Of a DNA stretch of 64,000 nucleotides, positions 8,685-63,196 are shown piece after piece. Each line of letters opens with the position of its first letter. Within the stretch, counting starts at the first letter, position 1. Origin of the DNA: an archaeon (lineage in GTDB: Archaea > Nanobdellota > Nanobdellia > CSSed11-243R1). The stretch covers positions 1,645 through 65,644 of the forward strand of contig JAJRVP010000015.1 in assembly GCA_024277205.1 (NCBI GenBank), in the 5' to 3' direction. Both the position numbers and the translations under genes were made by a program. The notes under the pieces were generated by a model. That model did not search any database. It was not told the DNA's origin and saw nothing but the letters and a program-made list of their open reading frames with translations.

Positions 8685-9590
8685 ATGGAAATTGTATTTC
8701 TCGGAACTGGCAGCATGTTCCCAACAAAAAAAAGAGCACACCCGAGCATTTTTATCAGAGATGAAAAGATTAAATTTTTATTTGATTGTGGAGAAGGGAC
8801 TCAGCGACAAATGCGTATTGCTGGAATAAGTCCAACAAAGTTAGATTACATATTTATAACTCATTGGCATGGAGACCACACATTAGGGCTTGCTGGCATA
8901 TTTCAATCTCTATCTGCAAGCCAAAGAGAAAGAAAATTAATTGTTTATGGCCCTGTTGGAACAAATGCAAGAGTATCTCATTTACTAAAAGCATTTGCAT
9001 TTGATTTAAAATATCCAATTGAAGTTAATGAAATAAAAATCAAAGAAGGTAAGGTATATAGAATAATTGATGAAAAAGAATTTGCAGTTGAAGCAATGTA
9101 TGTCAAGCATATAATCCCATGTGTTAATTATGCATATATTAAAAAAGGCAAAAGAAAAATAAATCTTGAATATACAAAAAAATTTGGGCTTGTGAGACAC
9201 AAAATTCTTGGAAAACTGCAAAAAGGAGAAACAATTGTTTACAAAGGACACAAAATTACACCTGAAAAAGGAACATACTTAACACCAGATAAAAGAATTA
9301 CGTATATAACGGATACAAATTACTTCAAAGGATTAGAAAAGCTTGCAAAAGATGCAGAAATCCTCATTTCAGAAGGAACTTTTTCAGAAGATTTAGAAAC
9401 AAAAGCTCGTGAATACACCCATATGACTGCTAAAGAAGCTGCAAAGCTTGCTAAAAAGGCAAAAGCAAAAAGATTGGTTTTAACCCATTTCTCACAAAGG
9501 TATAAGGATGTCTCAAAGTTAAAAGAAGAAGCTCAAAAAATTTTCAAAAATGTAGAAACTGCAAATGACTTTGATAAGATTATGATTTGA
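8685..9590 (+). CDS. rnz: ribonuclease Z (tRNA 3' endonuclease), metallo-beta-lactamase fold
   Basis: 301 aa. The HWHGDH motif and the length are typical of short-form RNase Z. Confidence 0.8.
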   Translation: MEIVFLGTGSMFPTKKRAHPSIFIRDEKIKFLFDCGEGTQRQMRIAGISPTKLDYIFITHWHGDHTLGLAGIFQSLSASQRERKLIVYGPVGTNARVSHLLKAFAFDLKYPIEVNEIKIKEGKVYRIIDEKEFAVEAMYVKHIIPCVNYAYIKKGKRKINLEYTKKFGLVRHKILGKLQKGETIVYKGHKITPEKGTYLTPDKRITYITDTNYFKGLEKLAKDAEILISEGTFSEDLETKAREYTHMTAKEAAKLAKKAKAKRLVLTHFSQRYKDVSKLKEEAQKIFKNVETANDFDKIMI

Positions 9591-23450: not shown

Positions 23451-23526
23451 TGGGGTTGGCAGGATTTGAACCTGCGACCTTCGGCGCCCGAGGCCGACGC
23501 TCTAATCCAAACTAAGCTACAACCCC
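23451..23526 (-). tRNA. tRNA-Pro (anticodon CGG)
   Basis: 76-nt cloverleaf on the minus strand: acceptor GGGGUUG/CAACCCC, U8, D-stem GCUU/GAGC, anticodon stem UCGGC/GCCGA with loop CUCGGGC (G37), T-arm GCAGG-UUCAAAU-CCUGC, A73. No encoded CCA. Confidence 0.8.
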
Positions 23527-23570
23527 GCAACCTTTCTTTAAAAAGAAAGCGTATCCAATGAAAAAGATTT

Positions 23571-32831: not shown

Positions 32832-33617
32832 TTATCCACCACTCTGGTAGCCTTTTTTGGATTTCCATGTCCATAAAATCACCAGCAATAGAACTAGTGA
32901 GAAGGGTTTATTAAAGTTGGAAGAAATTTCAAGTTTTAGAAACAAAAATAAAGGAGAATTTGGATCATCCCTGTTTGGATGAATTTCAAGCCAATTAGCA
33001 AGATAAGGAGTTGATGTAATTAATCTTATTCTTCTCATGCCTGTTTTTCCACTCACAATTATTTTTGCTCCATATTTGTCAAAATTTAAATGTTTAATCT
33101 GCATTGTTGCTAATTCACCAATTCTGCAACCAGATTCATAAAGTGTTGAAATGAGTGCTTTGTCCCTAACATGCCCTGCTGCTTCTATCAATCTTTTTAC
33201 TTCTTCAATTGTCAGGATTTCCTCTGGCAATCTGCTTTTTCCATTTTTCATAGTTGTTTTTAACCATTTGATTTTTTCTGGATACTCTCCATTGTTTAGC
33301 CATTTGTAGAATTTCTTTATAGAAATCTTGTGCAACTGCTTTGTCCATTCTGCATAATCCATTCTTTCTATTTTTTGAACCAAATCCAACAAATCTTCTT
33401 TATTTGCTTTGTCCAAATCTTTGTTCAGCCAAGATATTATGTTTTTCAAAAGATAAAGGTATCGCTCCACTCTCACAATGCTGAGCCCTTGTGCAAAGCA
33501 ATCCCTTTGAAATTTTAAAAGCAGTTCCTTGTTTCTCTTTGAGATTTTTCTAGACTTTTTAATTTTCTCAAGAACTTGTCTAAGCCTTTTCTCAGATTCA
33601 TGAATGTCCTGCTTCAT
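32832..33617 (-). pseudogene. tyrosine recombinase/integrase (XerC/XerD-like), C-terminally truncated
   Basis: N-terminal SAM-like core-binding domain and box I with catalytic Arg (ESGCRIGEL) are present. After NSPLF the frame degenerates, and the HxxR and Tyr motifs are absent. Confidence 0.55.
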
Positions 33618-33685: not shown

Positions 33686-33697
33686 AGCCTCGGGTGG
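33686..33697. repeat. att-like direct repeat (right copy, inside tRNA-Thr 3' end)
   Basis: Exact 12-mer AGCCTCGGGTGG. Confidence 0.5.
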
Positions 33698-33806
33698 GAT
33701 TTGCACCCACGACCTTCGCCTCTTTGCAACCTTTTCTTTGGTTGAGCTTTCTTTTCCAAAGAAAGGTCATACCAAGGCGACGCGCTACTAGCTACGCCAC
33801 CGAGGC
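33686..33806 (-). tRNA. tRNA-Thr (anticodon GGU) with about 47-nt intron in the anticodon loop
   Basis: Acceptor GCCUCGG/CCGAGGC, U8, D-stem GCGU/GCGC, anticodon stem UCGCC/GGCGA, T-arm GUGGG-UGCAAAU-CCCAC, U73 (archaeal Thr identity). Exon junctions give loop UUGGUA|A. The exact splice sites cannot be fixed by eye. Confidence 0.55.
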
Positions 33807-33847
33807 TTAACTAAATTATTAAATATTTCATTTAAATATATATTGCT

Positions 33848-34795
33848 ATGGCGCATCCCCTCTTTTTGATTATTGGGCTTGTTGGACTATGGATTGGCTC
33901 AGGACTAGTAGTCGATGGGGCAAAGGGTTTGGCTAGAAAATTTGGCATATCTGAATTATTCATCGGACTTACAATTGCATCAATTGGAACATCTATTCCA
34001 GAAATATCTGTAAGTCTAATTGGTGCACTTGACAGGTTAAAAGGCATAGAAACATCAGGTGTGGTTGTTGGAAATGCATTAGGTTCAATTCTAAATCAAG
34101 TGACATTAATTATCGGATTAGTTGGGCTTTTTACAGTTTTAACAATTAGCAAAAGAGAATGGAAACGGGAAGGCTTTTCTCTTTTAGCATCTTTAGGAGT
34201 ATTCGCATTAGTTGCATGGGATGGCTACATAAGTCATCTTGAAGGATTCTTCATGATTATTGTATTCATAATATATTTCTTCATCTTAATAAGTTCAGAA
34301 AAAAGAGCTGGAGTAATTCACAATTCAAAAGAAAAAAAGATTAGCGCATTTTTAATGATTCTATCTATAATATTTGGCCTTGCAATTGTTATTTTCTCCT
34401 CAGAATTTACTATTGGTGGTGCATTAGAACTTGCAGAAATGTGGAATATAAAGGAATCATTAATAGGTATTGTAATTATTGGTTTAGGAACAGGACTTCC
34501 AGAACTTATGGTTTCTTTGCGTGCTGTATTAAAAGGTTCTATATCTTTCTCAGTTGGAAATTTGCTTGGAAGTAATGTTGTAGATTTACTCTTCTCTCTT
34601 GGATTAGGCGCCTCAATTTCTGGATTTTTAGTTAACTCCAACATAATTTTATTTGACTTACCTATGTTAATATTAATGACAAGCGTCATGCTGTTGTTAT
34701 TCAGGACAAATCTTAAATTAGAGCGAAAAGAATCTTTAATTTTGATTTTAATCTACATAACCTATGTTGGCATCAAAATATTTTTGAGGTTATAA
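33848..34795 (+). CDS. Na+/Ca2+ exchanger (CaCA / YrbG-like) family transporter
   Basis: 315 aa. Two alpha-repeats carry GTSIPE and GTGLPE. Confidence 0.7.
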   Translation: MAHPLFLIIGLVGLWIGSGLVVDGAKGLARKFGISELFIGLTIASIGTSIPEISVSLIGALDRLKGIETSGVVVGNALGSILNQVTLIIGLVGLFTVLTISKREWKREGFSLLASLGVFALVAWDGYISHLEGFFMIIVFIIYFFILISSEKRAGVIHNSKEKKISAFLMILSIIFGLAIVIFSSEFTIGGALELAEMWNIKESLIGIVIIGLGTGLPELMVSLRAVLKGSISFSVGNLLGSNVVDLLFSLGLGASISGFLVNSNIILFDLPMLILMTSVMLLLFRTNLKLERKESLILILIYITYVGIKIFLRL

Positions 34796-35011
34796 ATTAA
34801 TCTCAACAATTTTGGTTTTTGAGGTTTCCCCTTTTAGAATCTTAATGTCTGATTTTTTAACATTATAATGTTTTGCTAAAATTTCAATTAATTGTTTATT
34901 TGCTTTTCCTTTTTCTGGAGGAGAAGTCAATTTAACCCTCAAGCTTCCATCCATTTCTGTTTCAACTAGATTCATGCTTGATTTAGGAACAACTTTTAGT
35001 TTAATTTGCAT
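34790..35011 (-). CDS. DUF167 (YggU-like, UPF0235) small protein
   Basis: 73 aa. The GKANKQLIEILAK core matches the YggU family. Confidence 0.5.
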   Translation of the reverse strand: MQIKLKVVPKSSMNLVETEMDGSLRVKLTSPPEKGKANKQLIEILAKHYNVKKSDIKILKGETSKTKIVEINL

Positions 35012-35069
35012 AATTTATAAAATAATAAGAAATATAAATTAATTACTACTTTAAAATAGATAGATAGGG

Positions 35070-36071
35070 GTGCTATACATGAGTGTGACTAATGGATTAA
35101 AAAGTGCACTTGAAGCAATATATGACATAAATAACTTAGAAGAAATTCTCATTGTATGCGACAAAAGCAAGGAATTTGTTGTTAAAGCTTTTGAAAATGC
35201 CATATTTAAAAGTAATTTTAATGGAGTGTCAAGGAGATTTTATCTAGATGATTATGAACGGCCTCTTAAATGTGTGCCAAGCGATTTAAATCAAATGATT
35301 GAGGATATGGCTCCAGAATTAACAATCACTTTATTTGAAGCCTATCCTGAAGAAAGACCCATGAGAATAGAATTATTAACTAAGTTAGAAGAAATTGGCA
35401 GAATAGCACATTGCCCTGGAATAACAAAAGAAATGCTAAGAGATGGTGGACCATTTGACATTGATTACAATCAAATGAAACAAAAAGCAATCAAACTAAA
35501 AAAAATATTAAGTCAATATAAAATGTTTGAAATTCGTTCAGGTCCAAATAAAGAGTATAAATTAAATATTTATGTTGGAGATAGAAGATGGCTTGATGAT
35601 TTAACTGTTGCAGAAAGAGGTTTTGGAAATCTTCCTGCTGGTGAGGTATTTGCAGGTCCTATAGAGGACATGGCAAACGGTAAAATGTATGTGGAATACA
35701 GGGCAGGAGAACATCTTCTAAAAAAACCAGTTATTATTACATGGACGCATGGAGTTATCAGAGATATAACAACCAAGGACAAAAAAATGGAAAAAATTCT
35801 AAAAAAAGGATTAAAAATGCATAAATATGGAGATATAATCGGAGAGCTTGGGATAGGATTTAATATAAATGCAGACCCCCAAGCTGAGATTCTAGAAAGT
35901 GAAAAGAAAGGATTGCATATTGCAAGAGGTCCAAGTCCTGAATTTGGTTCACCTTATCACTGTAGCGACCATGAAGATTATTTATTGATAAATGCAGAAT
36001 TAACAGCAATTAAACAAGGAGAAAATGGGGAAAGCGTTCAAATCTACAAAGATGGAAATGTTTTGATTTAA
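35070..36071 (+). CDS. M29-family (aminopeptidase T/PepS-like) metallo-aminopeptidase, tentative
   Basis: 333 aa. NLPAGEVFAGP resembles the conserved M29 motif. Confidence 0.4.
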   Translation: MLYMSVTNGLKSALEAIYDINNLEEILIVCDKSKEFVVKAFENAIFKSNFNGVSRRFYLDDYERPLKCVPSDLNQMIEDMAPELTITLFEAYPEERPMRIELLTKLEEIGRIAHCPGITKEMLRDGGPFDIDYNQMKQKAIKLKKILSQYKMFEIRSGPNKEYKLNIYVGDRRWLDDLTVAERGFGNLPAGEVFAGPIEDMANGKMYVEYRAGEHLLKKPVIITWTHGVIRDITTKDKKMEKILKKGLKMHKYGDIIGELGIGFNINADPQAEILESEKKGLHIARGPSPEFGSPYHCSDHEDYLLINAELTAIKQGENGESVQIYKDGNVLI

Positions 36072-37273
36072 TTAAAATCAAAAATTCTTTTTTGATTCAA
36101 CATTTTACTTTTCTTCTTATATCCTTCAATTGAAATTTTTAATTTTGAATTAATATAACTTAGTGCATCTTGCAGAGTTTGAAATTTCTTTGGACATGAT
36201 TTCATTGCATTTCTTGCATTTTCTCTAACTTGCCAAACACCAAGTGGAACAATATATCCTTCAGAAATCTCTCTAAAAACAATTACTCTTGCTTGCTTTT
36301 TCATTTTGTCCAAAGCTTCGCAAACAGCAAATCTTGCAGCATAATATCCACCACCTTCTTTGTCTGCATATGTTTTTCTTCCTTCGAATGGCTCATATTC
36401 TTCAAGAATAAAAGTTTCTTTAGCATCTTTTGCCCAAGAAGAACCAGGCGCCCATGCTTCGAAATTTTCATATTCCCATTTTCCAGGCATTAAAAGAATT
36501 ATAAAGTGATTATCAAGATATTTTGATTCATAAATAAAGTAGGAATCTATTTGCTTGTATTCGCGAATTCTTTTCATCATCTCTTTTGCAAGAATGTCAT
36601 CAACTGCTGTAATGCTCCATCTTGTTGGAACAAGTTTTTGATTTTTATATTGTCCGAGGGCACCACTTGTGAAAATATTTGTTATATAATAAATATCAAA
36701 ATTTTTGTAAAGAACATTTACTTGCTCAACAGCTTTTAATTCGTCATCAACAATTTTATCAACTTTTTGAGGTATCTTTGGATTTTCAACAATTTTCATT
36801 TTTTCAATTGGTGCTGAGGGGCCCATTGGCTGAGTAATGTCTGAGAAACTTATTTTGTAACTTGGCTTTTTTGCAAATTTTAAATCAACATCTGTTGGCT
36901 TTTTTGACATTGCCAGAAGCTGATTTTCTTCAACAAACCTATTTTTTGATTTAACATTTTGAATTGATTTCGAACGAATAGTCAAAGAACGCATCTCTAT
37001 TATTTTGCTGTATTCCATACCAAACCATTTATTTGGAGAATCAACTAAATTCTCATTTTCAACAGCGCCAATTGGTCCAACAAAAACATTTGGATAATTT
37101 GAATGTCCAACAAAAACAGAGGTAGATGGACCAGAAAATTCTTTTCCAATTTCTAACTTTGGCTTAACATTAAATTTAGCAAGAAGTGGGCAGGGATTAT
37201 TCCCACACAAATGTTTTCCACCCTTACATATAACACAAAGATTTGCAGAAGATACCATTTTAATTAAAATCAT
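36068..37273 (-). CDS. Nre-family (COG1602-like) archaeal DNA-repair-associated protein with N-terminal zinc ribbon
   Basis: 401 aa. The N-terminal motif is CVICKGGKHLCGNNPCP (C-x2-C-x5-C-x4-C-P). Confidence 0.4.
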   Translation of the reverse strand: MILIKMVSSANLCVICKGGKHLCGNNPCPLLAKFNVKPKLEIGKEFSGPSTSVFVGHSNYPNVFVGPIGAVENENLVDSPNKWFGMEYSKIIEMRSLTIRSKSIQNVKSKNRFVEENQLLAMSKKPTDVDLKFAKKPSYKISFSDITQPMGPSAPIEKMKIVENPKIPQKVDKIVDDELKAVEQVNVLYKNFDIYYITNIFTSGALGQYKNQKLVPTRWSITAVDDILAKEMMKRIREYKQIDSYFIYESKYLDNHFIILLMPGKWEYENFEAWAPGSSWAKDAKETFILEEYEPFEGRKTYADKEGGGYYAARFAVCEALDKMKKQARVIVFREISEGYIVPLGVWQVRENARNAMKSCPKKFQTLQDALSYINSKLKISIEGYKKKSKMLNQKRIFDFN

Positions 37274-37291
37274 TCTTGGTGCAGCTTCTTC

Positions 37292-37885
37292 TTAAGAAGG
37301 TGCATCCAGTAATTCCTTTATTGCTTCAACAGGCTTAGTGATTGCTTCCTCATAAGTTGCTGTTGTATTATCAAATAAGATATCATAAATGCTTTTATCA
37401 TTAATATCAATGCCATAAAGTTCTTTATATCTTTGGGCATCAGCATTATCTCTCTCTTCAATCCTTATTTTTGCTTCCTCCTCAGAAATATTTTCTCTCT
37501 TAGCAACTCTTTTTATTCTAACATCCTCTTCGCAATCAACCCAAAGTTTTATATCAGCATTATCTCCCGCAACCCAACCAGTTAATCTTCCAACCAAAAT
37601 AATTTTACCTTGTTTTGCCAATTCAATTGTTTTCTTATCAAGAAGTATGTCTGTATCTTCATTTCTGGTTTTTGAAAATTCTTCAATTGTTATGCCTTTT
37701 TCTTTTGCAAATTCTCTAAATATATCACCCATGCTCTTTAATTCTAGATTAAATGCTTTTGAAATTGCTTTTGCAACAGTTGATTTTCCAGAACCAGAAA
37801 GCCCAGAAACTGTAATTGTTATTCCTTCTTTTTTAATTTCTAATTGTTTTTCAAATTCTTTTAATTTCTCAATATAAGTTCCCAT
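37292..37885 (-). CDS. cmk: cytidylate kinase (archaeal type)
   Basis: 197 aa. The P-loop is ITVSGLSGSGKSTVAKAI. Family and length match archaeal CMP kinases. Confidence 0.65.
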   Translation of the reverse strand: MGTYIEKLKEFEKQLEIKKEGITITVSGLSGSGKSTVAKAISKAFNLELKSMGDIFREFAKEKGITIEEFSKTRNEDTDILLDKKTIELAKQGKIILVGRLTGWVAGDNADIKLWVDCEEDVRIKRVAKRENISEEEAKIRIEERDNADAQRYKELYGIDINDKSIYDILFDNTTATYEEAITKPVEAIKELLDAPS

Positions 37886-37936
37886 TAAAAATTCAACATA
37901 TGAAACAAATTTAAAGTTTTAGAATTTTAAATTATC

Positions 37937-38191
37937 ATGGTTACAATTATTGAATTATTTGGCATGGCTGGAGCAATTCTACTAATTGTGGCTTGGATAC
38001 CTGAACTTATTGAAATAATAAAATCAAAACGCTCTAAGCTTGATAAGAGATTTAGCAGCCTCTTGCTTATAGCAACTATTATATTGTTTATATATAGCGT
38101 ACTAATTAATGATAATGTTTTCACTTTTATTAACGCATTTCTTATGTTTGAGATTGGAATCAGCTTTTACTATAGTGTATTAAGAAAATAA
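37937..38191 (+). CDS. small membrane protein
   Basis: 84 aa with two transmembrane helices. Confidence 0.25.
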   Translation: MVTIIELFGMAGAILLIVAWIPELIEIIKSKRSKLDKRFSSLLLIATIILFIYSVLINDNVFTFINAFLMFEIGISFYYSVLRK

Positions 38192-38237
38192 TTTCTTATA
38201 AGAAAAGTTTATAATATTTTAACTATTAAGTAGTTAC

Positions 38238-38810
38238 ATGAAATTAGAAGAAAAACTAAACATGAAAGTAAAATCAAGGGGGTTAATTCGATTTCTTGAA
38301 AAATTAGATGCTACTATTCTAACACCAAGAGAAATAATTGCGAAATTCAAAAAAAGATATCGCAAAGAAGAACCACACTTAGAAATTGAAAGAGATATTT
38401 ACAAGATATATAACACCCTCAAAGAGTTAGATTATGCAGTGGACATAAAAGATTTCACAAAACCATTCCTATCTCTTGAATCTCTTGAAGATGGAGTAAT
38501 ACCCCAATATGATTTTGGAGAGGATATTGTAGCTGCAAAAGCAATTGGAGATGGAAAAAGACTTCATGCAAGAATGTGGAAATCCAAAACACAAAATGGT
38601 GAGAAATGCTACAGAGTAGAAGCCCACACAGAAATTTATCCTACAACAGGAAAATTAAATTATCCCAAGACATTATGGCAATGGTTGACAAGAGCTAGCC
38701 TTCATATTCGTGACCCAAAAGCAGATTATAACAAAGGCGCACAAATGCTATTAAATGAAATAATGGGATATATAGAAGTATATAATATTCAAACTCTCAT
38801 TAAAGCTTAG
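38238..38810 (+). CDS. hypothetical protein
   Basis: 190 aa. Confidence 0.25.
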   Translation: MKLEEKLNMKVKSRGLIRFLEKLDATILTPREIIAKFKKRYRKEEPHLEIERDIYKIYNTLKELDYAVDIKDFTKPFLSLESLEDGVIPQYDFGEDIVAAKAIGDGKRLHARMWKSKTQNGEKCYRVEAHTEIYPTTGKLNYPKTLWQWLTRASLHIRDPKADYNKGAQMLLNEIMGYIEVYNIQTLIKA

Positions 38811-41067
38811 CTTGTATTTCCTTCCCAAAAAACTTGCTTGCCTTCTTCGCATTTTTTATTGAGATTTTTGTTATTTTTCTCAATTCTATTACGTTTTCTT
38901 TTGCTCTTTCAATAGCATATTCTACTTGGGGCAAACTGTGCGCAAATACAATCAATGCATTTTCTGTCTTTTTTAATTCTCCAACCAACCTATTCGCATT
39001 TACTAATATCTCCTTGAGTTCAGTTATCATTCTTTTTTCTTCTTCTCCAAAAAGATCTGTATATTTTAACATAACCGCTTCTAAATTACTTATTCCTCTT
39101 TCTATATCTATCATGCATTTCTCTGATTTTCTAACCTCAGCACTAAAATCTTTTTCCATCAAAGCCAAATTTCTGTAGTATGCAATAAGTTTGTATAGCA
39201 TCAATCCTTCATCCTCAAATCCCCTTCTTAATGTATTTATAAAAGCAACATATTGCATCAAATCTGTCTTGTTTTCAATCCACTTTTTCAAGCGCAAAAT
39301 CTCCATAGATTCTTCCTTTTCTTCTTTGCTCAGATAATGTTCTGCCATAACAATATCTTTAATCATTCTATCTTCCACATTCTTCCCAAAAATTCCAAAC
39401 AATCCTTTTTTTGTAAAATTAAAATGGGGTGCTTCGCTTATTGCCTTTTTAATAGCATTTATTGCAGGAAGAAATTCGCGCTTCATATCTTTGTGCTTGG
39501 TTTGCAATTCTCTAATTCTCATTCTAAGTTCTGCAATCTTGGCTCTTGTTTCTGCTTCTTCTTGAGTTGTTTTTGGGGCTCCTGCTTGGGCTTCCTCTTT
39601 AACAATTATCTTTTCCTCTTTTAGTGATTCTTCTAGTTCTCTTATGTCTGCTCTTAAATCACGAATCGCTCTTTTAGTTCCAGCATCAACAGATTTTTCA
39701 ATGCCTAAGAGATTTTTATCCAATTTCTTTAGATTTTTTAAAAAACCCTTGTTTTCCAATATATACATCATTTGCATATCTCTCTCTAAATTTTTAATTA
39801 TTCCTTCCTCTCCTGCAAACTCCTTGAACAATTCTCTTCTTTCTTCATCTATGTGCTGTAATGCTGGTATCAATGCTTTCTGAGAGAATTGCGCAACTTT
39901 TTCAAGAAAGTTTAATGCACCAGATGGATTTTTCTTTGCAATCTTATATGCGCTTAAAAGAGCATTGTTTATCCACATTATCTGTGGTTTTAATCTTATC
40001 TCTGCAGTAGAAATATTATTAATAAATCTCGAAATCATGGTAGAAAATCTTTGCATATTCTCAAATAATCTGTCCAACCTGGCAAATTCTTTTTCCAAAT
40101 CTTCTTCTTCTTTAAGTAATGCTCGTTCTTCTGCATTTATCATTGAAACTGTTCTGCTTACTTTTACTCCATATTTTGCAGCTCCTTTTTTGACTTTTTC
40201 TAAATGTTTTTGGATTTTCTGCAGGGATTTCATCAATTTTTTAATCCGTTTAGAAACTCTTGCTTCTTTTTTTGCTTTTTGTTCTTCTCTTCTAAATATT
40301 CTTGGTCTGCCACCAATGAGTTTTTCTATTTTTTCATGGTCTTTTATTAGCTTAAACATAAGTTTCATGTCGAGGGCAATTGCATCAACAATCCAATTTT
40401 CTTCTTTCATAAATTTGGCAAAAAAAATCTCTTCTTTTTCAAAAACCAATTCAAGTTTTTTCAAATACATTGGTGCTAAAAAAATACGAGTTAATCCCCT
40501 TGCATAAACTCCTTCTTTCATAGACAAAGAATGTGCTTTTCTCAATGCTGCAAGTTCTTTATTTGTAACAGAAATCAATTTTTTATCTCTTGCTGCTTCC
40601 CTAGAAAGAATTTTTTCGCATTGTCTTGTTAGCTTTTCCACTTTTTTAATTTTGGCTCTTAACTGTTTGGGCATCTTTTTTTCTTCTGCTTCTTCTTGGT
40701 GTAACTCTAAATCTGTGGTTCTTAGTGTTGAGTATAAAAAACGTGCTTGTTCAGATGCCAACTTCCTTTCTGTTCCTATAAAGTGCATAAGCATACTTAA
40801 TGTCCATGTTTTTTCAGAAAGGTATTGCACAATGCCCTTACCAAACCTTTTCCTCAATTTACCATATACTGTTCTTTTGCTCGCCCTTCCTCTGGATTCT
40901 ATCTCAGCTCCTGCTGCTTCTACAAGTGGTTTTGCTATTCCTGCAACTTCAACATATTTTGCAATTGCAGAAGACAATTTTTCTAAGAATTCTTCGTGCT
41001 TTGCAAAAATTTGCTCTAAAACATCCATATTACGCCTAAGCTGGTTTTCTAATCCTTGAAGTGGCAT
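38800..41067 (-). CDS. large K/E-rich coiled-coil protein, hypothetical
   Basis: 755 aa and almost entirely predicted helical or coiled coil. No Walker motifs. Confidence 0.4.
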   Translation of the reverse strand: MPLQGLENQLRRNMDVLEQIFAKHEEFLEKLSSAIAKYVEVAGIAKPLVEAAGAEIESRGRASKRTVYGKLRKRFGKGIVQYLSEKTWTLSMLMHFIGTERKLASEQARFLYSTLRTTDLELHQEEAEEKKMPKQLRAKIKKVEKLTRQCEKILSREAARDKKLISVTNKELAALRKAHSLSMKEGVYARGLTRIFLAPMYLKKLELVFEKEEIFFAKFMKEENWIVDAIALDMKLMFKLIKDHEKIEKLIGGRPRIFRREEQKAKKEARVSKRIKKLMKSLQKIQKHLEKVKKGAAKYGVKVSRTVSMINAEERALLKEEEDLEKEFARLDRLFENMQRFSTMISRFINNISTAEIRLKPQIMWINNALLSAYKIAKKNPSGALNFLEKVAQFSQKALIPALQHIDEERRELFKEFAGEEGIIKNLERDMQMMYILENKGFLKNLKKLDKNLLGIEKSVDAGTKRAIRDLRADIRELEESLKEEKIIVKEEAQAGAPKTTQEEAETRAKIAELRMRIRELQTKHKDMKREFLPAINAIKKAISEAPHFNFTKKGLFGIFGKNVEDRMIKDIVMAEHYLSKEEKEESMEILRLKKWIENKTDLMQYVAFINTLRRGFEDEGLMLYKLIAYYRNLALMEKDFSAEVRKSEKCMIDIERGISNLEAVMLKYTDLFGEEEKRMITELKEILVNANRLVGELKKTENALIVFAHSLPQVEYAIERAKENVIELRKITKISIKNAKKASKFFGKEIQAKL

Positions 41068-41104
41068 AATACTCTAAGAAAATATACGTTAATAAAATTA
41101 TGGA

Positions 41105-41373
41105 TGCGGGGGAGGAGATTTTCACCAACCCTTTCTTTTGGTCGAGCTTTTCTTTTTAAGAAAAGGTCGTTTTGAACTCCCGCAGGGATTGGTCACCAAA
41201 GCGCCAAAGGGCACATTAGCTCTAACCCACCAGGTATCCACGACCCCTTCTTTTGGTCGAGCTTTTCTTCCAAAGAAAAGGTCGCCTAAGCCTGGCCCGT
41301 TTGACCGTACCGTGCTCTTTCTTTCCCGAGGGTTTCTTTCTCACGAGAAAGAAGAGCTCTCCGGCACCCCCGC
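41105..41373 (-). tRNA. tRNA-Leu (anticodon UAG), class II, with at least three introns (D-loop, anticodon loop, T-loop region)
   Basis: Acceptor GCGGGGG/CCCCCGC with A73. D-arm CCG-GAGCGGUCAAA-CGG appears after removing a 50-nt D-loop intron. Anticodon stem CCAGG/CCUGG with loop CUUAGG|A. T-stem GGGAG/CUCCU is split by an intron after UUCAAAA. A 48-nt stretch in the variable region is unresolved. Confidence 0.45.
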
Positions 41374-41416
41374 ATAAAACAATAGAAAATAATCCACTAT
41401 AAAAAAGTTGTGAAAA

Positions 41417-42055
41417 TTAATCTCTTATACTTCTAATTTTTTGAGCTAGTTTGTATGCAAAGAGGTAATTAGCTCCAGATAACATAGCACCAACCAACAT
41501 TGTATTTGTTGGAGCAATTTGAGAAGCAATTAAAGACATATCTCCATAATCTAAAAAGAAAGAACCTGCATTTAACATAATGGCGCTAACTCCAACACCA
41601 AAAGATTTCATATCCTTATTTTCAATTCCTTCAGCAGCCATATAAAATCCAAATGTGGGTATAACAAAATTTGGCAATAATGCCGAAATTGAAACTGCAA
41701 GAAGATTTGGTGCAGTTAAGAGTGTGTATGCTCCTTTTGAGTTTACTCCAAATCCAAGAACGTCTCCTCCACACAATTTAGCACCAATAGCATGCAATGT
41801 TTCATGAAGAACAGTAAGTGGTAATATGCTTAAATATGCTGCAGCAAAATATTGTTTTGCCCCATTATTAACTTCAATATTTAATGAGTCCTTATTTTGT
41901 TCTTCTTCAATAAAATCCAACCAATATCTGAACATATCAATGTTAGATTCGTCTAAATTAGAAACATCGATGTAATCTGGAAGTTTGTCTTTTGAACTCA
42001 ATAATTCTTCTAATTCCATTTGTTTAATTTCACTGATACTTAAGCATTCACTCAT
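41417..42055 (-). CDS. membrane protein with HExxH motif (putative zinc metalloprotease)
   Basis: 212 aa. HETLH lies in a hydrophobic context. Confidence 0.35.
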   Translation of the reverse strand: MSECLSISEIKQMELEELLSSKDKLPDYIDVSNLDESNIDMFRYWLDFIEEEQNKDSLNIEVNNGAKQYFAAAYLSILPLTVLHETLHAIGAKLCGGDVLGFGVNSKGAYTLLTAPNLLAVSISALLPNFVIPTFGFYMAAEGIENKDMKSFGVGVSAIMLNAGSFFLDYGDMSLIASQIAPTNTMLVGAMLSGANYLFAYKLAQKIRSIRD

Positions 42056-42124
42056 ATGGTAATCACTATGTAATTATGACTAAAAATTATTTAAAAAGAT
42101 TGCGAATAAAAAAGAAAAAGAAGA

Positions 42125-42655
42125 CTAAGCTTCAGAATAAGCTTCGCCAATTACACTCATGTAAAAAATTCCTGCTATTGCTGCTCCCAATATATTTCCA
42201 ATTATTGGTATAAATCCCAATACAAATTTTATTACCCCTGCAATAACTATTGAGATTATCCAACCCCCAAAGAATTTTTGTGTAAAAATTTTCTTTGTAA
42301 TCTGTTTAAAATTAAATGCCTCTGAAAATTTTCTTTTTTCAGCATATCTTAAAACTGCTCCTGTTGCTATATAACCAATAACTAATCCAACAATAATTAG
42401 TAGTATCAATGTTATTGTTATTTCACCAAAACCTATAGCTGCTGAAAATCCAGTAATTAATGCTAAGATTATCACAGGTATTAAGTATATCAACAATATA
42501 ACAAACTGCTTTATTCCCTCAACAAACAATTTCACATAATCTTTGAACTCTGGTAGTTTCTTTTGTTTTTTCATTGAGGTTTGTGCCACATCTAATAAAT
42601 AGCCCATCCCAATAAAGTTAACATTTGGTATTATGCTAACAATGATATAAATCAA
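42125..42655 (-). CDS. multi-pass membrane protein, hypothetical
   Basis: 176 aa with four or five transmembrane helices. Confidence 0.3.
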   Translation of the reverse strand: MIYIIVSIIPNVNFIGMGYLLDVAQTSMKKQKKLPEFKDYVKLFVEGIKQFVILLIYLIPVIILALITGFSAAIGFGEITITLILLIIVGLVIGYIATGAVLRYAEKRKFSEAFNFKQITKKIFTQKFFGGWIISIVIAGVIKFVLGFIPIIGNILGAAIAGIFYMSVIGEAYSEA

Positions 42656-42779
42656 TAATTTACTAAGTCACTAAATGGTCTTTTTAATGCTTCTGAATAG
42701 TTTACCACATGTTCACCTCCGACTTTTGATAAAAATAAAAATCGTTAGATTTATAAAAGAATTACTACTCTAAGATATT

Positions 42780-43121
42780 ATGACTACTGACGAGGAGTTA
42801 AATAAAATCCTTGATGGATTGAAAAAAGAAGGTAAAGTAAAAGATAACTCTGAGATAGAAAAAATGCTAAGTAAAAAAGCATGGCATACAGCAATTAGGG
42901 TTGAAAAAGGTGGACAACTATCCATCTTTTATAATATGCCTGGCTTAGGGATAGGAGTATCCCATATTAATATGGATATATCAATAGAAGAAATTGAAAA
43001 AAGAATAAAGGATTCTTCGTATGGGCTACCTCACCAAACAAGAGATGACTACAGAATAGATGGTAACGTAATTTATCTAAGATATGGTACAGATAGTATT
43101 GGTACACTACTAAAAGAGTAG
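42780..43121 (+). CDS. hypothetical protein
   Basis: 113 aa. Confidence 0.25.
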   Translation: MTTDEELNKILDGLKKEGKVKDNSEIEKMLSKKAWHTAIRVEKGGQLSIFYNMPGLGIGVSHINMDISIEEIEKRIKDSSYGLPHQTRDDYRIDGNVIYLRYGTDSIGTLLKE

Positions 43122-43296
43122 GTGCCAAATTGAAAAAGGATGCAAAAAAGAATGTAATTGCACTCCATAACTATCTCTTTTTTACTAATTACGGCAAACA
43201 AAGCATTATAATTGTGGAAAGTTGATTGATATAATTAAAAAATGGCTTGAATACAAAAGATGTTTAGCTGTAACTATTGCTAATTAAAACTATAGA

Positions 43297-43524
43297 TTGT
43301 ATCAGATGGAGCATTGTATTGATTACGAATTATTTCCAGAGGATATTAATGAATTTCATATAAATAAATCTTTAATTAAGAATTCCATGGAAAAAATTTT
43401 AAAGAAAGAAGAATATCGCGAAAACGCAGTGTATCATGCAAAATTATCAAACTCAAAAGTTAAACTAATTTTAATACCAAAGTCTAAACTAGAAAAAATT
43501 CTTAAATGTCTCAATGAAGATTAA
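43297..43524 (+). CDS. hypothetical small protein
   Basis: 75 aa. Confidence 0.2.
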   Translation: MYQMEHCIDYELFPEDINEFHINKSLIKNSMEKILKKEEYRENAVYHAKLSNSKVKLILIPKSKLEKILKCLNED

Positions 43525-43556
43525 TATACATAGTGGGTAAGAGTTACAAAAAATCA

Positions 43557-43985
43557 TTAGTGAAACTGCTTTCGCATGTGGATCTCCTTGTGTCTAATTC
43601 TAAACCCCATCTTCTTATACAGCGCAATTGCGCTTTCATTGTCTTCTACTACATGAAGATCCAAAGCAATCACCCTATCCTCTTTACAAATACTCATCGT
43701 TTTTTCTATTAATGCTCGCGCAATTCCTTTTTTACGATGGTTTGGCAGAACAATAAGTCTTCTGAGATATCCTATCTTTTCACTATCACCCCTAGTTCCT
43801 ATGATTAACTCTATCTTTCCAACTATCTCCAAATCTTCAACAGCAAGGAGGATTAATTTTCTTTCTACTTTAGATGGATCTATAGGACATATATATTTCT
43901 TTATTAAACGCTCCTTAAATCCCCCCTCATCATCAAGCTGTAAGATTGCATTTGTATCTTTTTCTGTTGCAATACGTATTTCCAT
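43557..43985 (-). CDS. GNAT-family N-acetyltransferase
   Basis: 142 aa. The acetyl-CoA binding motif is RRLIVLPNHRKKGIARAL. Confidence 0.7.
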   Translation of the reverse strand: MEIRIATEKDTNAILQLDDEGGFKERLIKKYICPIDPSKVERKLILLAVEDLEIVGKIELIIGTRGDSEKIGYLRRLIVLPNHRKKGIARALIEKTMSICKEDRVIALDLHVVEDNESAIALYKKMGFRIRHKEIHMRKQFH

Positions 43986-44061
43986 CTAAATCATTATTAA
44001 TCAAAAAAGCATTATTTAAATTTATTTAGCTAAATAAAAAATTAACTTCAAGAATTAATTA

Positions 44062-45357
44062 TCAATGTCTCAACATTGGTGGGGGCTTCCTATGTGGCGG
44101 ATGGCGTATGTGGGTTACACGACTGCGGGCCGCCCGTATATTGCTTGCAGCAAATGAACGTGGTGAAGGATCTCTTGATGGTTTATTCAATTGATAACTT
44201 AACATACTGCTTGGGGGACCTGGTGGCCTTACTGACGAGTTTCTCCTGTTGTAACTATCTGTATTCCCTTGAGAACTATCCGACGAAATGTTACCAAATT
44301 TACCAGACGAATAATTACTGGTATCCGGAGACGTCGAAATAACATTTTGTGGCAATCTTTGAGCATAAGCAATTTCATGAAATCTTTCTTTCTCCTTAAT
44401 TAGTGAAGGCAACCTTTGTTTATAGAAAGTATCTCCTGAATCTCCAAGAATCTTGTAGTAATCTATGGCAATAGATATCAAACCCTCAGCTGACTTGAAA
44501 TCTTTTTCATCAACAGCCATGTATGTCATAGAAAGGAGTATTTCAGGAATGACTAATAGAGTATCATAATCAACATCCTTAGCATCCATCTTCCTGCGCC
44601 AAACAGTAAGAGCGTGATCCATATCATTAATAGCATCTTTTCTACTGCCAATTTCTTCGTAAATACTTCCCCTTATGTACAATGAAGTAATATCATCTTT
44701 CCTGAATCCAAGCGCAGAGTTAATTGAGGATAAAGCAGAATTTAAATCGCATCTTTCCATGTTAACATATGTAAGCAAATACATCAAATTAAGATACTCC
44801 TTACTATTCCTACTTTGATGTATTGTCTTTCCAGCCATATAATCTCTACCATAATCCAAATATCTCTTAGCACTTAATAATTCACCTTTGTTATATCTAA
44901 GTCCCCCTAGGTAACTAACAGTTTTCATAAGCACATTCATAACATCATCATCATTAGAATTGGGTATAGCCAACAATAAATCTTCCAATCCTTTTATTGA
45001 ACTAGAAGAACCAAAATTCTCAAAACTAATCGTATAAAAATCATAAAAAAATTCCATAGCAGCAGGATAATCCGCAAGGCGATTTAGATTTATTGTATCA
45101 TCTGAAAGAAGAATATTCATTGAGTCTGCAAGTAATTGTATTCCCCTATTTTTACTTTTGAGTTTTTGCACTTCATTAGTTTCTTGCATACCCGCAAGGT
45201 ATTCATACTTTCCGACAAGGTATGTTATTTCCCCACTATTATCCATCCTTGCTGCAGTTTCAAGATAGCTTATAGCATCACTTGCCCTCTCTGCCCTCCT
45301 AACTGCATCAGCATAAGGTTTCGCTTTTGCATTCGCTTTCCATCTCGCCATAATCAA
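44062..45357 (-). CDS. TPR-like repeat protein with GC-rich, Pro/Ser/Arg-rich C-terminal extension
   Basis: 431 aa. The helical repeat region is followed by a low-complexity tail, encoded by 44062..44340 at markedly higher GC. Confidence 0.4.
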   Translation of the reverse strand: MIMARWKANAKAKPYADAVRRAERASDAISYLETAARMDNSGEITYLVGKYEYLAGMQETNEVQKLKSKNRGIQLLADSMNILLSDDTINLNRLADYPAAMEFFYDFYTISFENFGSSSSIKGLEDLLLAIPNSNDDDVMNVLMKTVSYLGGLRYNKGELLSAKRYLDYGRDYMAGKTIHQSRNSKEYLNLMYLLTYVNMERCDLNSALSSINSALGFRKDDITSLYIRGSIYEEIGSRKDAINDMDHALTVWRRKMDAKDVDYDTLLVIPEILLSMTYMAVDEKDFKSAEGLISIAIDYYKILGDSGDTFYKQRLPSLIKEKERFHEIAYAQRLPQNVISTSPDTSNYSSGKFGNISSDSSQGNTDSYNRRNSSVRPPGPPSSMLSYQLNKPSRDPSPRSFAASNIRAARSRVTHIRHPPHRKPPPMLRH

Positions 45358-45423
45358 ATCAAATAGGTTATGTTTTAAAGACTTTTTCTTTATAATGTTA
45401 CAAATTATTATTTAAAGAAAAAG

Positions 45424-45601
45424 TGCTCCCACCGGGATTTGAACTCCCGCAACCTTTCCTTTCTTTTGGTGCAGCTTTTCTTTTTGAAAGAAAAGGTGTC
45501 CCGGGTCATCGGCTTTCTCCAGATTTCTTTGGTGCAACTTTCTTTTTAAAGAAAGGTGCTTCGAGAGGCCGACATCCTTGACCGGACTAGACTATGGGAG
45601 C
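45424..45601 (-). tRNA. tRNA-Glu (anticodon CUC) with two introns (anticodon loop and T-arm 53/54)
   Basis: Acceptor GCUCCCA/UGGGAGC with A73. Anticodon stem UCGGC/GCCGA with loop CUCUCGA. T-stem CCGGG/CCCGG is interrupted before UUCAAAU by a 55-nt intron. Overall pattern matches archaeal tRNA-Glu. Confidence 0.5.
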
Positions 45602-45693
45602 GTCCAGTTCTTCCGCCAGCGCTTCTTTTTAAGAAGGGCTGATGGGAGCACAATAAGAAAATAATATAAATATATTAAAAGCTTTACTAATGT

Positions 45694-62993: not shown

Positions 62994-63196
62994 AAAAGAA
63001 AGAGCAGTTTATTAATTTAGTCCTTTAACATTTTCTTTTAGTGCAGGTTTTCTTTCTAAAAGAAAAAGTGCAAAGAAAGAGCAGTTTATTAATTTAGTCC
63101 TTTAACATTTTCTTTTAGTGCAGGTTTTCTTTCTAAAAGAAAAAGTGCAAAGAAAGAGCAGTTTATTAATTTAGTCCTTTAACATTTTCTTTTAGT
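62994..63196. repeat. 77-bp tandem direct repeat, 2.6 copies, each with an 11-bp-stem hairpin and TATA-like box
   Basis: Unit caaagaaagagcagtttattaatttagtcctttaacattttcttttagtgcaggttttctttctaaaagaaaaagtg is repeated at about 62994, 63071 and 63148 (partial). It contains ttttcttttag/ctaaaagaaaa as an inverted repeat. Confidence 0.7.

Follow-up and report, generated by a model that had tools for sequence, protein, structure and literature searches.

A hairpin and mirror-tail module in predicted introns of three tRNA genes of a Nanoarchaeota relative, and its copies outside tRNA genes

How does nearly the same intron sequence come to stand in tRNA genes for three different amino acids, and at different positions within them? 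The question is raised by a 64,000-nt stretch of archaeal contig JAJRVP010000015.1 (assembly GCA_024277205.1, positions 1,645 to 65,644 of the forward strand; this whole stretch is called the window hereafter), in which a preliminary description made from the letters alone had noted five intron segments with a common core in the genes for tRNA-Thr, tRNA-Leu and tRNA-Glu, and had suggested that introns were duplicated or transposed between tRNA genes. The reuse and turnover implied by this suggestion are borne out, but the unit that is shared and moved is a module of about 38-45 nt, not a whole intron, and it is found outside introns as well. The module family proliferates in this lineage, and in our preferred reading, which is probably right, it is a small mobile or duplicative family that persists in tRNA genes as introns by supplying the inner helix of the splice motif.

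The recurrence itself is not in doubt. All five segments lie on the minus strand, and the pattern ACCTTTYYTT-N(4-12)-AAAGYT-NN-ACCAAA (Y, pyrimidine; N, any base) matches the window at five places only (33737-33767, 41137-41167, 41252-41282, 45465-45497 and 45528-45557); for a related fixed pattern the chance expectation is 0.08. A generic search for hairpins with a pyrimidine run and, behind them, a purine tail in exact mirror image gave 11 matches in the window (9 distinct elements), compared with 0-1 in 20 shuffles. The covariance model R1, built from copies in other genomes together with three window copies (Thr 33732-33769 and both Leu type-1 copies), scored the five segments at 46-59 bits (E 7e-12 to 9e-9), of which only the two Glu copies, at E 5e-9 to 9e-9, are independent of the training set. 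The five segments with one core in the preliminary description are confirmed. A chance likeness among low-complexity A/T-rich hairpins might be expected in a genome of 31% GC, as T/C and A/G runs are common in AT-rich DNA and the hairpin energy alone is unimpressive. However, the 11 matches against 0-1 in shuffles, the R1 E-values down to 7e-12 and those of the copies outside training, the conserved non-repetitive parts (ACC, GCU and the covarying NN/N'N' dinucleotides) and an identity of 94% over 35-36 nt to copies in other phyla all contradict it; chance resemblance is refuted by the shuffles and the covariation, and we give it practically no weight.

The genes that carry these segments are largely invisible to standard tools. 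In the unspliced window the sole ARAGORN call was an intron-less tRNA-Pro (23451-23526, minus strand), and Rfam found tRNA-Pro and tRNA-Thr and missed tRNA-Leu and tRNA-Glu, which explains how standard tRNA finders come to miss genes in DPANN genomes. We predicted splice sites by the bulge-helix-bulge rule, in which each strand of a 4-bp helix H is followed by a 3-nt bulge and is cut after the second base of that bulge. ARAGORN returned canonical Thr, Leu and Glu cloverleaves only after the predicted introns had been cut out, and tRNA-Leu with only three introns removed gave no call. Five of the seven predicted introns carry the module in the form that we call type 1:

33686..33806, minus strand: tRNA-Thr(GGU) gene with one intron; Rfam RF00005 51.2 bits; ARAGORN tRNA-Thr(ggt), 73 nt, once the intron is removed
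33722..33769, minus strand: Thr intron at 37/38, 48 nt; type-1 module TGACC-TTTCTTT-GGAA-AAGAAAG-CTCAACC-AAAGAAA, then A-GGTTG-CAAAG; R1 57.5 bits over 33732-33769, a model training copy
41105..41373, minus strand: tRNA-Leu(UAG) gene with four introns, 269 nt, mature 86 nt; ARAGORN tRNA-Leu(tag) with all four removed
41308..41358, minus strand: Leu intron 1, D-loop at about 15/16, 51 nt; a module of its own, hairpin TTCTTTCT / AGAAAGAA with mirror tail AAGAAAGA
41236..41284, minus strand: Leu intron 2 at 37/38, 49 nt; type-1 module CGACC...CTCGACC-AAAAGAA, then GG-GGTCG-TGGAT; R1 56.9 bits, a model training copy
41190..41220, minus strand: Leu intron 3, variable arm, 31 nt; GC-rich hairpin outside the module family, whose removal is needed for detection by ARAGORN
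41119..41170, minus strand: Leu intron 4, T-loop at 59/60, 52 nt; type-1 module, then AG-GGTTG-G-TGAA-AA; R1 59.4 bits, a model training copy
45424..45601, minus strand: tRNA-Glu(CUC) gene with two introns, 178 nt, mature 75 nt; ARAGORN tRNA-Glu(ctc) with both removed
45515..45561, minus strand: Glu intron 1 at 37/38, 47 nt; type-1 module GCACC...TTGCACC-AAAGAAA; R1 47.4 bits
45444..45499, minus strand: Glu intron 2 at 53/54, 56 nt; type-1 module ACACC...CTGCACC-AAAAGAAA; R1 46.1 bits

The preliminary description had located the segments in the right places, though its coordinates deviate by a few bases from introns whose removal yields canonical tRNAs, and its positions 37/38, 53/54 and about 59/60 are correct; it had missed two tRNA-Leu introns (41308-41358 and 41190-41220). 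A 2011 paper gave three as the highest number of introns per archaeal tRNA gene (PMC3239211), which the four in this tRNA-Leu exceed, but we claim no record for it because very intron-rich Asgard genomes have been reported since then (PMC11291895).

Every intron junction shows a strict or a relaxed bulge-helix-bulge motif. The strict scanner found 3-4-3 motifs at Glu 37/38 (helix CTCT/GGAG, bulges CG-A and AA-A, the hyphen marking the cut), at Glu 53/54 (helix CCCG/CGGG, bulges GG-A and AG-T) and at the Leu variable-arm intron (helix GTTA/TGAC, bulges GA-G and CA-A). The others were read manually: Leu 59/60 has a perfect 4-bp helix (TTCA/TGAA, bulges AA-A and AA-T) with the inner helix offset by one G; Thr 37/38, at which the strict scanner gave no match, is classed as relaxed because its central helix UUGG/GCAA contains one G.G mismatch; Leu 37/38 is relaxed, with a 5' bulge of 2 nt; and the Leu D-loop intron is relaxed as well, with three of four pairs in the central helix CCGG/ACGG. 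Archaeal introns of this kind are cut by broad-specificity EndA endonucleases, which may be (alpha-beta)2, epsilon2 or, in DPANN, alpha4 with an L3 loop (PMC3239211, PMC5829648), and DPANN EndAs with the L3 loop are reported to accompany heavy disruption of tRNA genes (PMC5829648); numerous disrupted tRNA genes are a known trait of DPANN genomes. The introns here resemble known ones both in position (37/38, 53/54, 59/60, D-loop and variable arm) and in their mixture of strict and relaxed motifs. Together with the ARAGORN calls, these motifs favour the earlier view of bulge-helix-bulge-type introns, and the five segments appear to be the cores of genuine protein-spliced tRNA introns.

What does the module do inside these introns? 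In all tRNA-borne copies it starts 0-3 nt past the 5' splice site, the intronic copies are all in sense orientation, and in the window introns the purine tail is followed by GGUYG. In minimum-energy folds from RNAfold, NNACC and the pyrimidine (Y) run pair with the tail and GGU in four of the five family introns, also when full pre-tRNAs are folded, and this long helix of NNACC plus Y run with tail plus GGUNN would be the inner helix (h') of the splice motif. The preliminary description had seen the ACC/GGU pairing, which is present, but had let it reach into the exons; it is entirely intron-internal, and exon and intron pair through a separate 4-bp helix. Those intron segments that form the exon pairing (TGAA, CGGG, GCAA, UGGA and GGAG) all differ from one another and stand 3' of the module. 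On these folds the module would supply about half of the splice motif, and a 4-6-nt exon-specific adaptor would complete the remainder.

The type-1 core of about 38 nt reads N1N2-A-C-C-(Y run 7-8)-loop-(R run)-G-C-U-N2'N1'-ACC-(purine tail), R standing for purine. Described generally, the module of about 38-45 nt comprises a closing stem a/a', a C.C mismatch, a helix of Y run and R run, a 3-4-nt linker (ACC in type 1) and a mirror purine tail. The closing dinucleotides N1N2 and N2'N1' are complementary in 125 of the 132 distinct copies from the window and public genomes (among the matches listed), and more than eight Watson-Crick types occur, with AA/TT, GC/GC, CA/TG, TG/CA, CG/CG, GA/TC, AC/GT and TA/TA among the pairs seen. 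When 44 copies are aligned without gaps, pairing in the hairpin reaches 99.4%, four pairs have double-sided changes, and no shuffle reached the observed covariation; the C.C mismatch within the stem is invariant in the type-1 alignment and is conserved across types.

The tail is the mirror image of the purine strand of the hairpin and not a copy of it: TTTCTTT is accompanied by AAAGAAA, and TTTTCTT by AAAAGAA (the rule holding in 97.7% of cells), and at least eight asymmetric Y-run variants keep the rule too. It is likewise kept by the other types in the window, namely CTTCTT/AAGAAG/GAAGAA at the tRNA-Glu leader described below, TTCTTTCT/AGAAAGAA/AAGAAAGA in the Leu D-loop intron and TTTTCTTT/AAAGAAAA/AAAAGAAA in intergenic DNA, and by types in relatives (CTTTCTT/…/GAAAGAA, CTTTTCTT/…/GAAAAGAA and TTCTCTCTTT/…/AAGAGAGAAA). 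A looser sub-run scan gave 56 mirror tails versus 26 direct copies, and none in shuffles. Watson-Crick pairing of the tail with the Y run accounts for h' in introns, but not for a tail that mirrors the purine strand rather than copying it. The Y run may alternatively pair with the R run in the covariation-backed hairpin, giving two mutually exclusive folds. Homopurine/homopyrimidine mirror symmetry with a short spacer is the classical requirement for an intramolecular triplex (H-DNA), and the module has exactly this symmetry and a short spacer. On sense RNA the only possible arrangement is the purine-motif triplex, which is disfavoured for RNA; we regard triplex formation by the mirror tail as a lead only.

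Some other explanations of the module's parts were tried and dropped. The NNACC boxes are not a target-site duplication, since their NN dinucleotides are complementary (TG/CA, AA/TT) and not identical. The two ACC boxes are not the two 3-nt bulges of a self-contained splice motif, as the covariation fits a continuous hairpin instead. Mimicry of a tRNA minihelix (a 12-bp stem plus ACCA) fits type 1 only, and was dropped as a general explanation because types 2, 3 and 5 lack ACCA. No Rfam family covers the module at the gathering threshold or at E<=10 (only chance microRNA matches on a tandem repeat were returned), and no description of it was found in the literature by sequence or by topic.

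Relatives of the host allow the history of these introns to be followed. The GatD protein encoded in the window is 85% identical to that of the Nanoarchaeota metagenome-assembled genome (MAG) AUK188 (GCA_021162365.1) and 77% identical to that of the Nanobdellati MAG S014 (GCA_027007025.1), and its next-best matches are Woesearchaeota at 55-58%; the host is a DPANN/Nanoarchaeota relative and not a member of the Thermoproteales. Orthologous tRNA genes were located by synteny. In-silico splicing of the AUK188 and S014 orthologues likewise gave canonical tRNAs, apart from S014 tRNA-Thr, for which trial intron boundaries gave no clean ARAGORN call. The predicted introns compare as follows:

Leu(UAG), window: D-loop, 37/38, variable arm and 59/60 (type 1)
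Leu(UAG), AUK188 (L137 9099-9363): the same four sites, the T-loop core being of another type (CACC-CTTTCTTT…GGAAAGAA)
Leu(UAG), S014: three introns, the T-arm one at 53/54, variable-arm intron lacking
Glu(CUC), window: 37/38 and 53/54 (type 1), plus a leader insertion
Glu(CUC), AUK188: D-loop and 37/38 (type 5)
Glu(CUC), S014: D-loop, 37/38 and a T-loop intron
Thr(GGU), window: 37/38, type 1 (TGACC…CTCAACC…GGTTG)
Thr(GGU), AUK188: 37/38, type 5
Thr(GGU), S014: an intron with a type-6 module at about 26/27, 5' of the anticodon stem, and a short unrelated anticodon-loop intron
Thr(GGU), GCA_021163365.1 (L138): nearly the same type-1 core and GGTTG as in the window, but in the D-loop

Because orthologous Leu, Glu and Thr genes differ in module types and positions, module-bearing introns have, within a short evolutionary span, been gained and lost, exchanged for others and moved to new positions. 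The reuse of one sequence family in different tRNAs and at different positions, as first proposed, is thereby extended by turnover among relatives, the tRNA-Thr D-loop of L138 being a case in point. The Glu 53/54 intron and its 3' exon are 89% identical over 108 nt to the stretch at the same position in AUK188 tRNA-Asp. In the D-loop intron of S014 tRNA-Leu (L139 9519-9582), a second small hairpin with mirror tail (CGCC-TTCTT-AAAA-AGAAGGC…AAGAAGG) is nested in the loop of the first one, which points to the insertion of one module into another. A separate peculiarity of the window tRNA-Thr (33686-33806) is its T-loop, UGCAAAU, which has G instead of the nearly universal U at position 55; a Micrarchaeota tRNA-Thr (L017 1277-1348) has UGCGAUU, and in the orthologues of AUK188 and S014 the loop is the usual UUCGAAU.

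Copies of the module also stand outside introns. The preliminary description, which noted five copies, had missed the following free-standing ones in the same window:

45602..45649, minus strand: 48-nt insertion at the 5' end of tRNA-Glu, made up of an upstream copy of GCTCCCAT (tRNA nt 1-8) and a 40-nt type-3 module CAGCC-CTTCTT-AAAA-AGAAG-CGCTGG-CGGAAGAA-CTGGAC
62995..63196, minus strand: 77-nt intergenic tandem repeat upstream of gatD, 2.6 copies, 100% identical, found by Tandem Repeats Finder (TRF)
63032-63071 and 63109-63148, minus strand: two type-2 modules in this repeat, split by the duplicated flank, TGCAC-TTTTTCTTT-TAGA-AAGAAAACC-TGCACT-AAAAGAAAA; R1 32 bits each
37272..37303, minus strand: mini type-1 module GCACC-TTCTT-AAG-AAGAA-GCTGCACC-AAGAA; R1 26.8 bits, E 3e-4
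23528..23564, plus strand: decayed type-1 copy, antisense, abutting the 5' end of the intron-less tRNA-Pro (23451-23526, minus strand); R1 25.5 bits, E 6e-4

The insertion at tRNA-Glu follows nt 8 and comes with an 8-nt target duplication (GCTCCCAT); in an alignment with AUK188 and S014, which share the promoter, it has no counterpart. As the scanner found no splice motif that would restore the tRNA from this element, we read it as a leader and not as an intron. It would presumably be removed by RNase P, which is possible because the downstream GCTCCCAT copy leaves the gene intact. The same type-3 module is the anticodon-loop intron of AUK188 tRNA-Asp. Upstream of gatD, the window spacer holds the two type-2 modules and a 28-nt flank in three copies, that of AUK188 contains a type-2 module, a mini type-1 module and a flank duplication of 22 nt, and in four relatives (S014, L141, L142 and L143) the spacer is empty, at 31-69 nt. 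A CRISPR (clustered regularly interspaced short palindromic repeat) array was considered for the 77-nt repeat and rejected, as its two "spacers" are identical to each other and it is a plain tandem repeat. The mini module at 37272-37303 lies across the stop codon of a cytidylate-kinase-like open reading frame (ORF), upstream of the Nre gene, and a near-identical one stands upstream of gatD in AUK188. The interval between these two genes is variable (window 36068-37885, minus strand, versus L137 12313-14895 and L138 12862-14967): it holds an extra 197-aa ORF in AUK188 and S014, a DUF3795 gene in L138, and only 35 nt, the mini module included, in the window. There are three states in which one module is seen: as the core of an intron, free between genes with its target duplicated, and newly inserted into the leader of a tRNA; the empty sites of close relatives serve as controls that make the question of intron gain directly testable.

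These copies also bear on a rival in which nothing moves: the introns of this lineage would require the module as a functional RNA scaffold, kept by selection and spread between tRNA genes by gene conversion only. Its binding partner might be the splicing endonuclease, a ligase or a chaperone, or the module might switch by folding into either the hairpin or h', and the copies in anaerobic methanotrophic archaea of group 1 (ANME-1), described below, might be the same protein-binding motif in mRNA 3' ends. An architecture retained while the sequence changes, the strictly sense orientation in tRNAs and after ORFs, the two mutually exclusive helices predicted and the C.C mismatch conserved across types would all fit such a role, and the preliminary description's own alternative, a functional embedded RNA element, comes close to the data. 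However, the variable-arm intron and the short anticodon introns of relatives lack the module, so that it is not required for splicing; its presence or absence and its flank duplications vary in non-coding spacers and in a tRNA leader; a decayed copy stands beside tRNA-Pro; and gene conversion could not shift an intron to another position. We therefore consider a purely non-mobile scaffold unlikely.

How far does the module reach beyond this lineage? A regular-expression scan of species-representative genomes gave at least 119 loci. DPANN MAGs (Nanoarchaeota, Woesearchaeota, Micrarchaeota, Parvarchaeota, Altiarchaeota and Aenigmatarchaeota) contain at least 20 copies, mostly within tRNA genes, in D-loops, anticodon loops and T-loops; this and the following counts of gene context hold among the matches listed. 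At least 110 copies belong to ANME-1/Methanophagales, Syntrophoarchaeum, Methanosarcinales, Methanolliviera, Bathyarchaeia and some further groups, with an identity of 94% to those of the window over 35-36 nt. These non-DPANN copies lie outside tRNA genes: a same-strand T-arm motif is nearby in 1 of 110, compared with 9 of 21 DPANN copies. In 38 of the 110 an ORF of at least 80 aa in sense orientation ends no more than 60 nt upstream, versus 11% at random positions, and in 16 a stop codon falls within -2 to +3 nt of the module start (…TAA-ACC…; e.g. L008, L032, L036 and L052), which suggests a role at mRNA 3' ends in ANME-1 and its relatives and points to a conserved motif of about 38 nt after stop codons in these methane-oxidising archaea. 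Several MAGs keep the module after the same gene end (L011, L029, L056 and L105).

Flank duplications recur outside the window as well: in S014 and in a Micrarchaeota MAG, modules have 21-23 nt of a tRNA end repeated on their flanks, and duplications of 15-16 nt stand beside copies from MAGs of ANME-1 and Parvarchaeota. In an Altiarchaeota MAG, the discriminator-CC of tRNA-Phe is where the module begins. Where modules lie directly 3' of a tRNA (L051 443-555, minus strand; L027 3878-4053), the internal a' arm is complementary to the end of the acceptor stem and the discriminator (GCA/UGC in L051 and GUCCA/UGGAC in L027), and the hairpin would therefore sequester the tRNA 3' end. In the ANME-1 single-cell genome AG-394-G06 (L007, about 1560-1830) a type-1 module stands next to an inverted type-2 module within a palindrome of about 190 nt (arms AACCACAAGATTACACA… / …TGTGTTAATCTTGTGG, with GATTTACAC-like repeats upstream), an arrangement suggestive of a composite repeat element. 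Habitats of the same kinds have yielded both ANME-1 and DPANN MAGs with the module, including AUK217 (ANME-1) and AUK188 (Nanoarchaeota) from Auka/Pescadero, and the contigs of a few further copies were binned as Desulfobacteria or Desulfuromonadales; such sharing across lineages could reflect horizontal transfer or mis-binning. A viral vector is not supported, the IMG/VR viral contigs being essentially without the module: of 13 pattern matches in them nearly all were coding sequence without a hairpin, and only L128 resembles a true copy.

The copies outside tRNA genes bear also on a second rival, in which whole introns are transposed via RNA by reverse splicing into other tRNAs, reverse transcription and recombination, and the module is simply the conserved intron body. 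This would account for the same core and GGTTG at 37/38 in the window tRNA-Thr and in the D-loop of its L138 orthologue, for intronic copies that are all in sense with the module abutting the 5' splice site, and for the likeness to Thermoproteales, in which similar introns stand at different positions (PMC4090602). But the exon-pairing 3' ends, which simple reverse splicing would preserve, differ in every copy, and for this reason the whole intron is not supported as the unit. The extra-tRNA copies have DNA-style flank duplications, a manual check of the flanks found no splice motif in the ANME-1 copies, and the window holds no reverse transcriptase. Transposition of whole introns via RNA is in our view quite improbable.

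Under the preferred reading of a mobile or duplicative module family, modules would be inserted at the DNA level by some machinery. In a tRNA gene a module would land 0-3 nt past the 5' splice site, its NNACC and Y run would pair with its own tail and GGUNN to form h', and then only a 4-6-nt adaptor complementary to the local exon would be needed to complete the motif. Modules would persist in tRNA genes where the broad-specificity splicing endonuclease can excise them, or where target duplication leaves the gene intact, and would be exchanged or replaced between sites over time. A far-reaching version may be put forward tentatively, and we hold it to be possible though doubtful: the module would be an undescribed mobile family across archaeal phyla (DPANN lineages, ANME-1/Syntrophoarchaeia, Methanosarcinales and Bathyarchaeia) that, once inserted in a tRNA gene, brings its own inner splice helix and so creates a new protein-spliced intron, as the missing vehicle of archaeal tRNA intron gain, and its mirror architecture would reflect a triplex or a protein-recognised mobilisation fold.

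Several observations speak against a mobile family of this kind. All splice junctions are predictions, and the hairpin by itself is weak (-5.1 kcal/mol at 37 C, z = -1.8). Part of the covariation may count lineages and not events, as the two main sequence classes may each derive from one ancestral change. No target duplications were seen around the five family introns in a manual reading, and most of the ANME-1 copies listed have no flank duplication. Those duplications that do occur vary from 8 to 28 nt and fit no classical transposase, and some may stem from replication slippage at hairpins and not from insertion. MAG binning errors may blur the taxonomic spread. Finally, the Pfam sweep found no EndA, RtcB, reverse transcriptase or transposase among the approximately 60 window ORFs.

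Known systems resemble this one in part. In the Thermoproteales, tRNA intron families are described as "transposed" between genes (Fujishima et al. 2010, as summarised in PMC4090602 and PMC3239211), by a mechanism given as unknown (PMC4090602). As those summaries present it, that case shares with ours several introns per gene, recent-looking gains and the unknown mechanism. The window likewise has near-identical intron sequence in Thr, Leu and Glu (five copies). Three of these are at 37/38, one is at 53/54 and one at 59/60, and in L138 tRNA-Thr nearly the same core occupies the D-loop. The comparison with Thermoproteales-type introns made in the preliminary description is apt for the shared family and the varied positions, but the host here belongs to DPANN/Nanoarchaeota and not to Crenarchaeota, the conserved unit is a hairpin and mirror-tail module instead of a whole intron, and there are at least 100 extra-tRNA places in ANME-1 and other archaea. 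In the summaries of the 2010 work we found no report of extra-tRNA copies with flank duplications, or of copies in other phyla, for the Thermoproteales. What is new compared with that case is the lineage and the free-standing copies, and with the window, the gain of archaeal tRNA introns at non-canonical positions can be studied in another lineage, unrelated to the first.

[quoted passage not shown] Unlike a MITE, the module has its hairpin inside and no inverted repeats at its ends, and its flank duplications (8, 15-16, 21-23 and 22-28 nt, none at most copies) are not of one fixed length. REPs have a conserved 5' tetranucleotide where the module has a conserved ACC, the window contains no RAYT or transposase partner, and to our knowledge neither REPs nor MITEs occur as tRNA introns. 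The box C/D guide in the tRNA-Trp intron is a functional RNA embedded in an archaeal tRNA intron and is comparable as a conserved structured RNA in such a place. The module differs in occurring in many tRNAs and positions, and no C (RUGAUGA) or D (CUGA) box was seen when the seven intron sequences were read directly.

The surroundings are those of an ordinary chromosome: the approximately 60 ORFs of the Pfam sweep include genes for purine synthesis, ribosomal proteins, GatD/E, AspRS and transporters. Two of them may be listed here:

8685-9590: RNase Z, from the Pfam sweep
32832-33617, minus strand: tyrosine recombinase, 261 aa, Pfam Phage_integrase with an N-terminal SAM-like domain, directly downstream of tRNA-Thr

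The tyrosine recombinase may be XerA, or else an integrase whose element has inserted itself at the tRNA.

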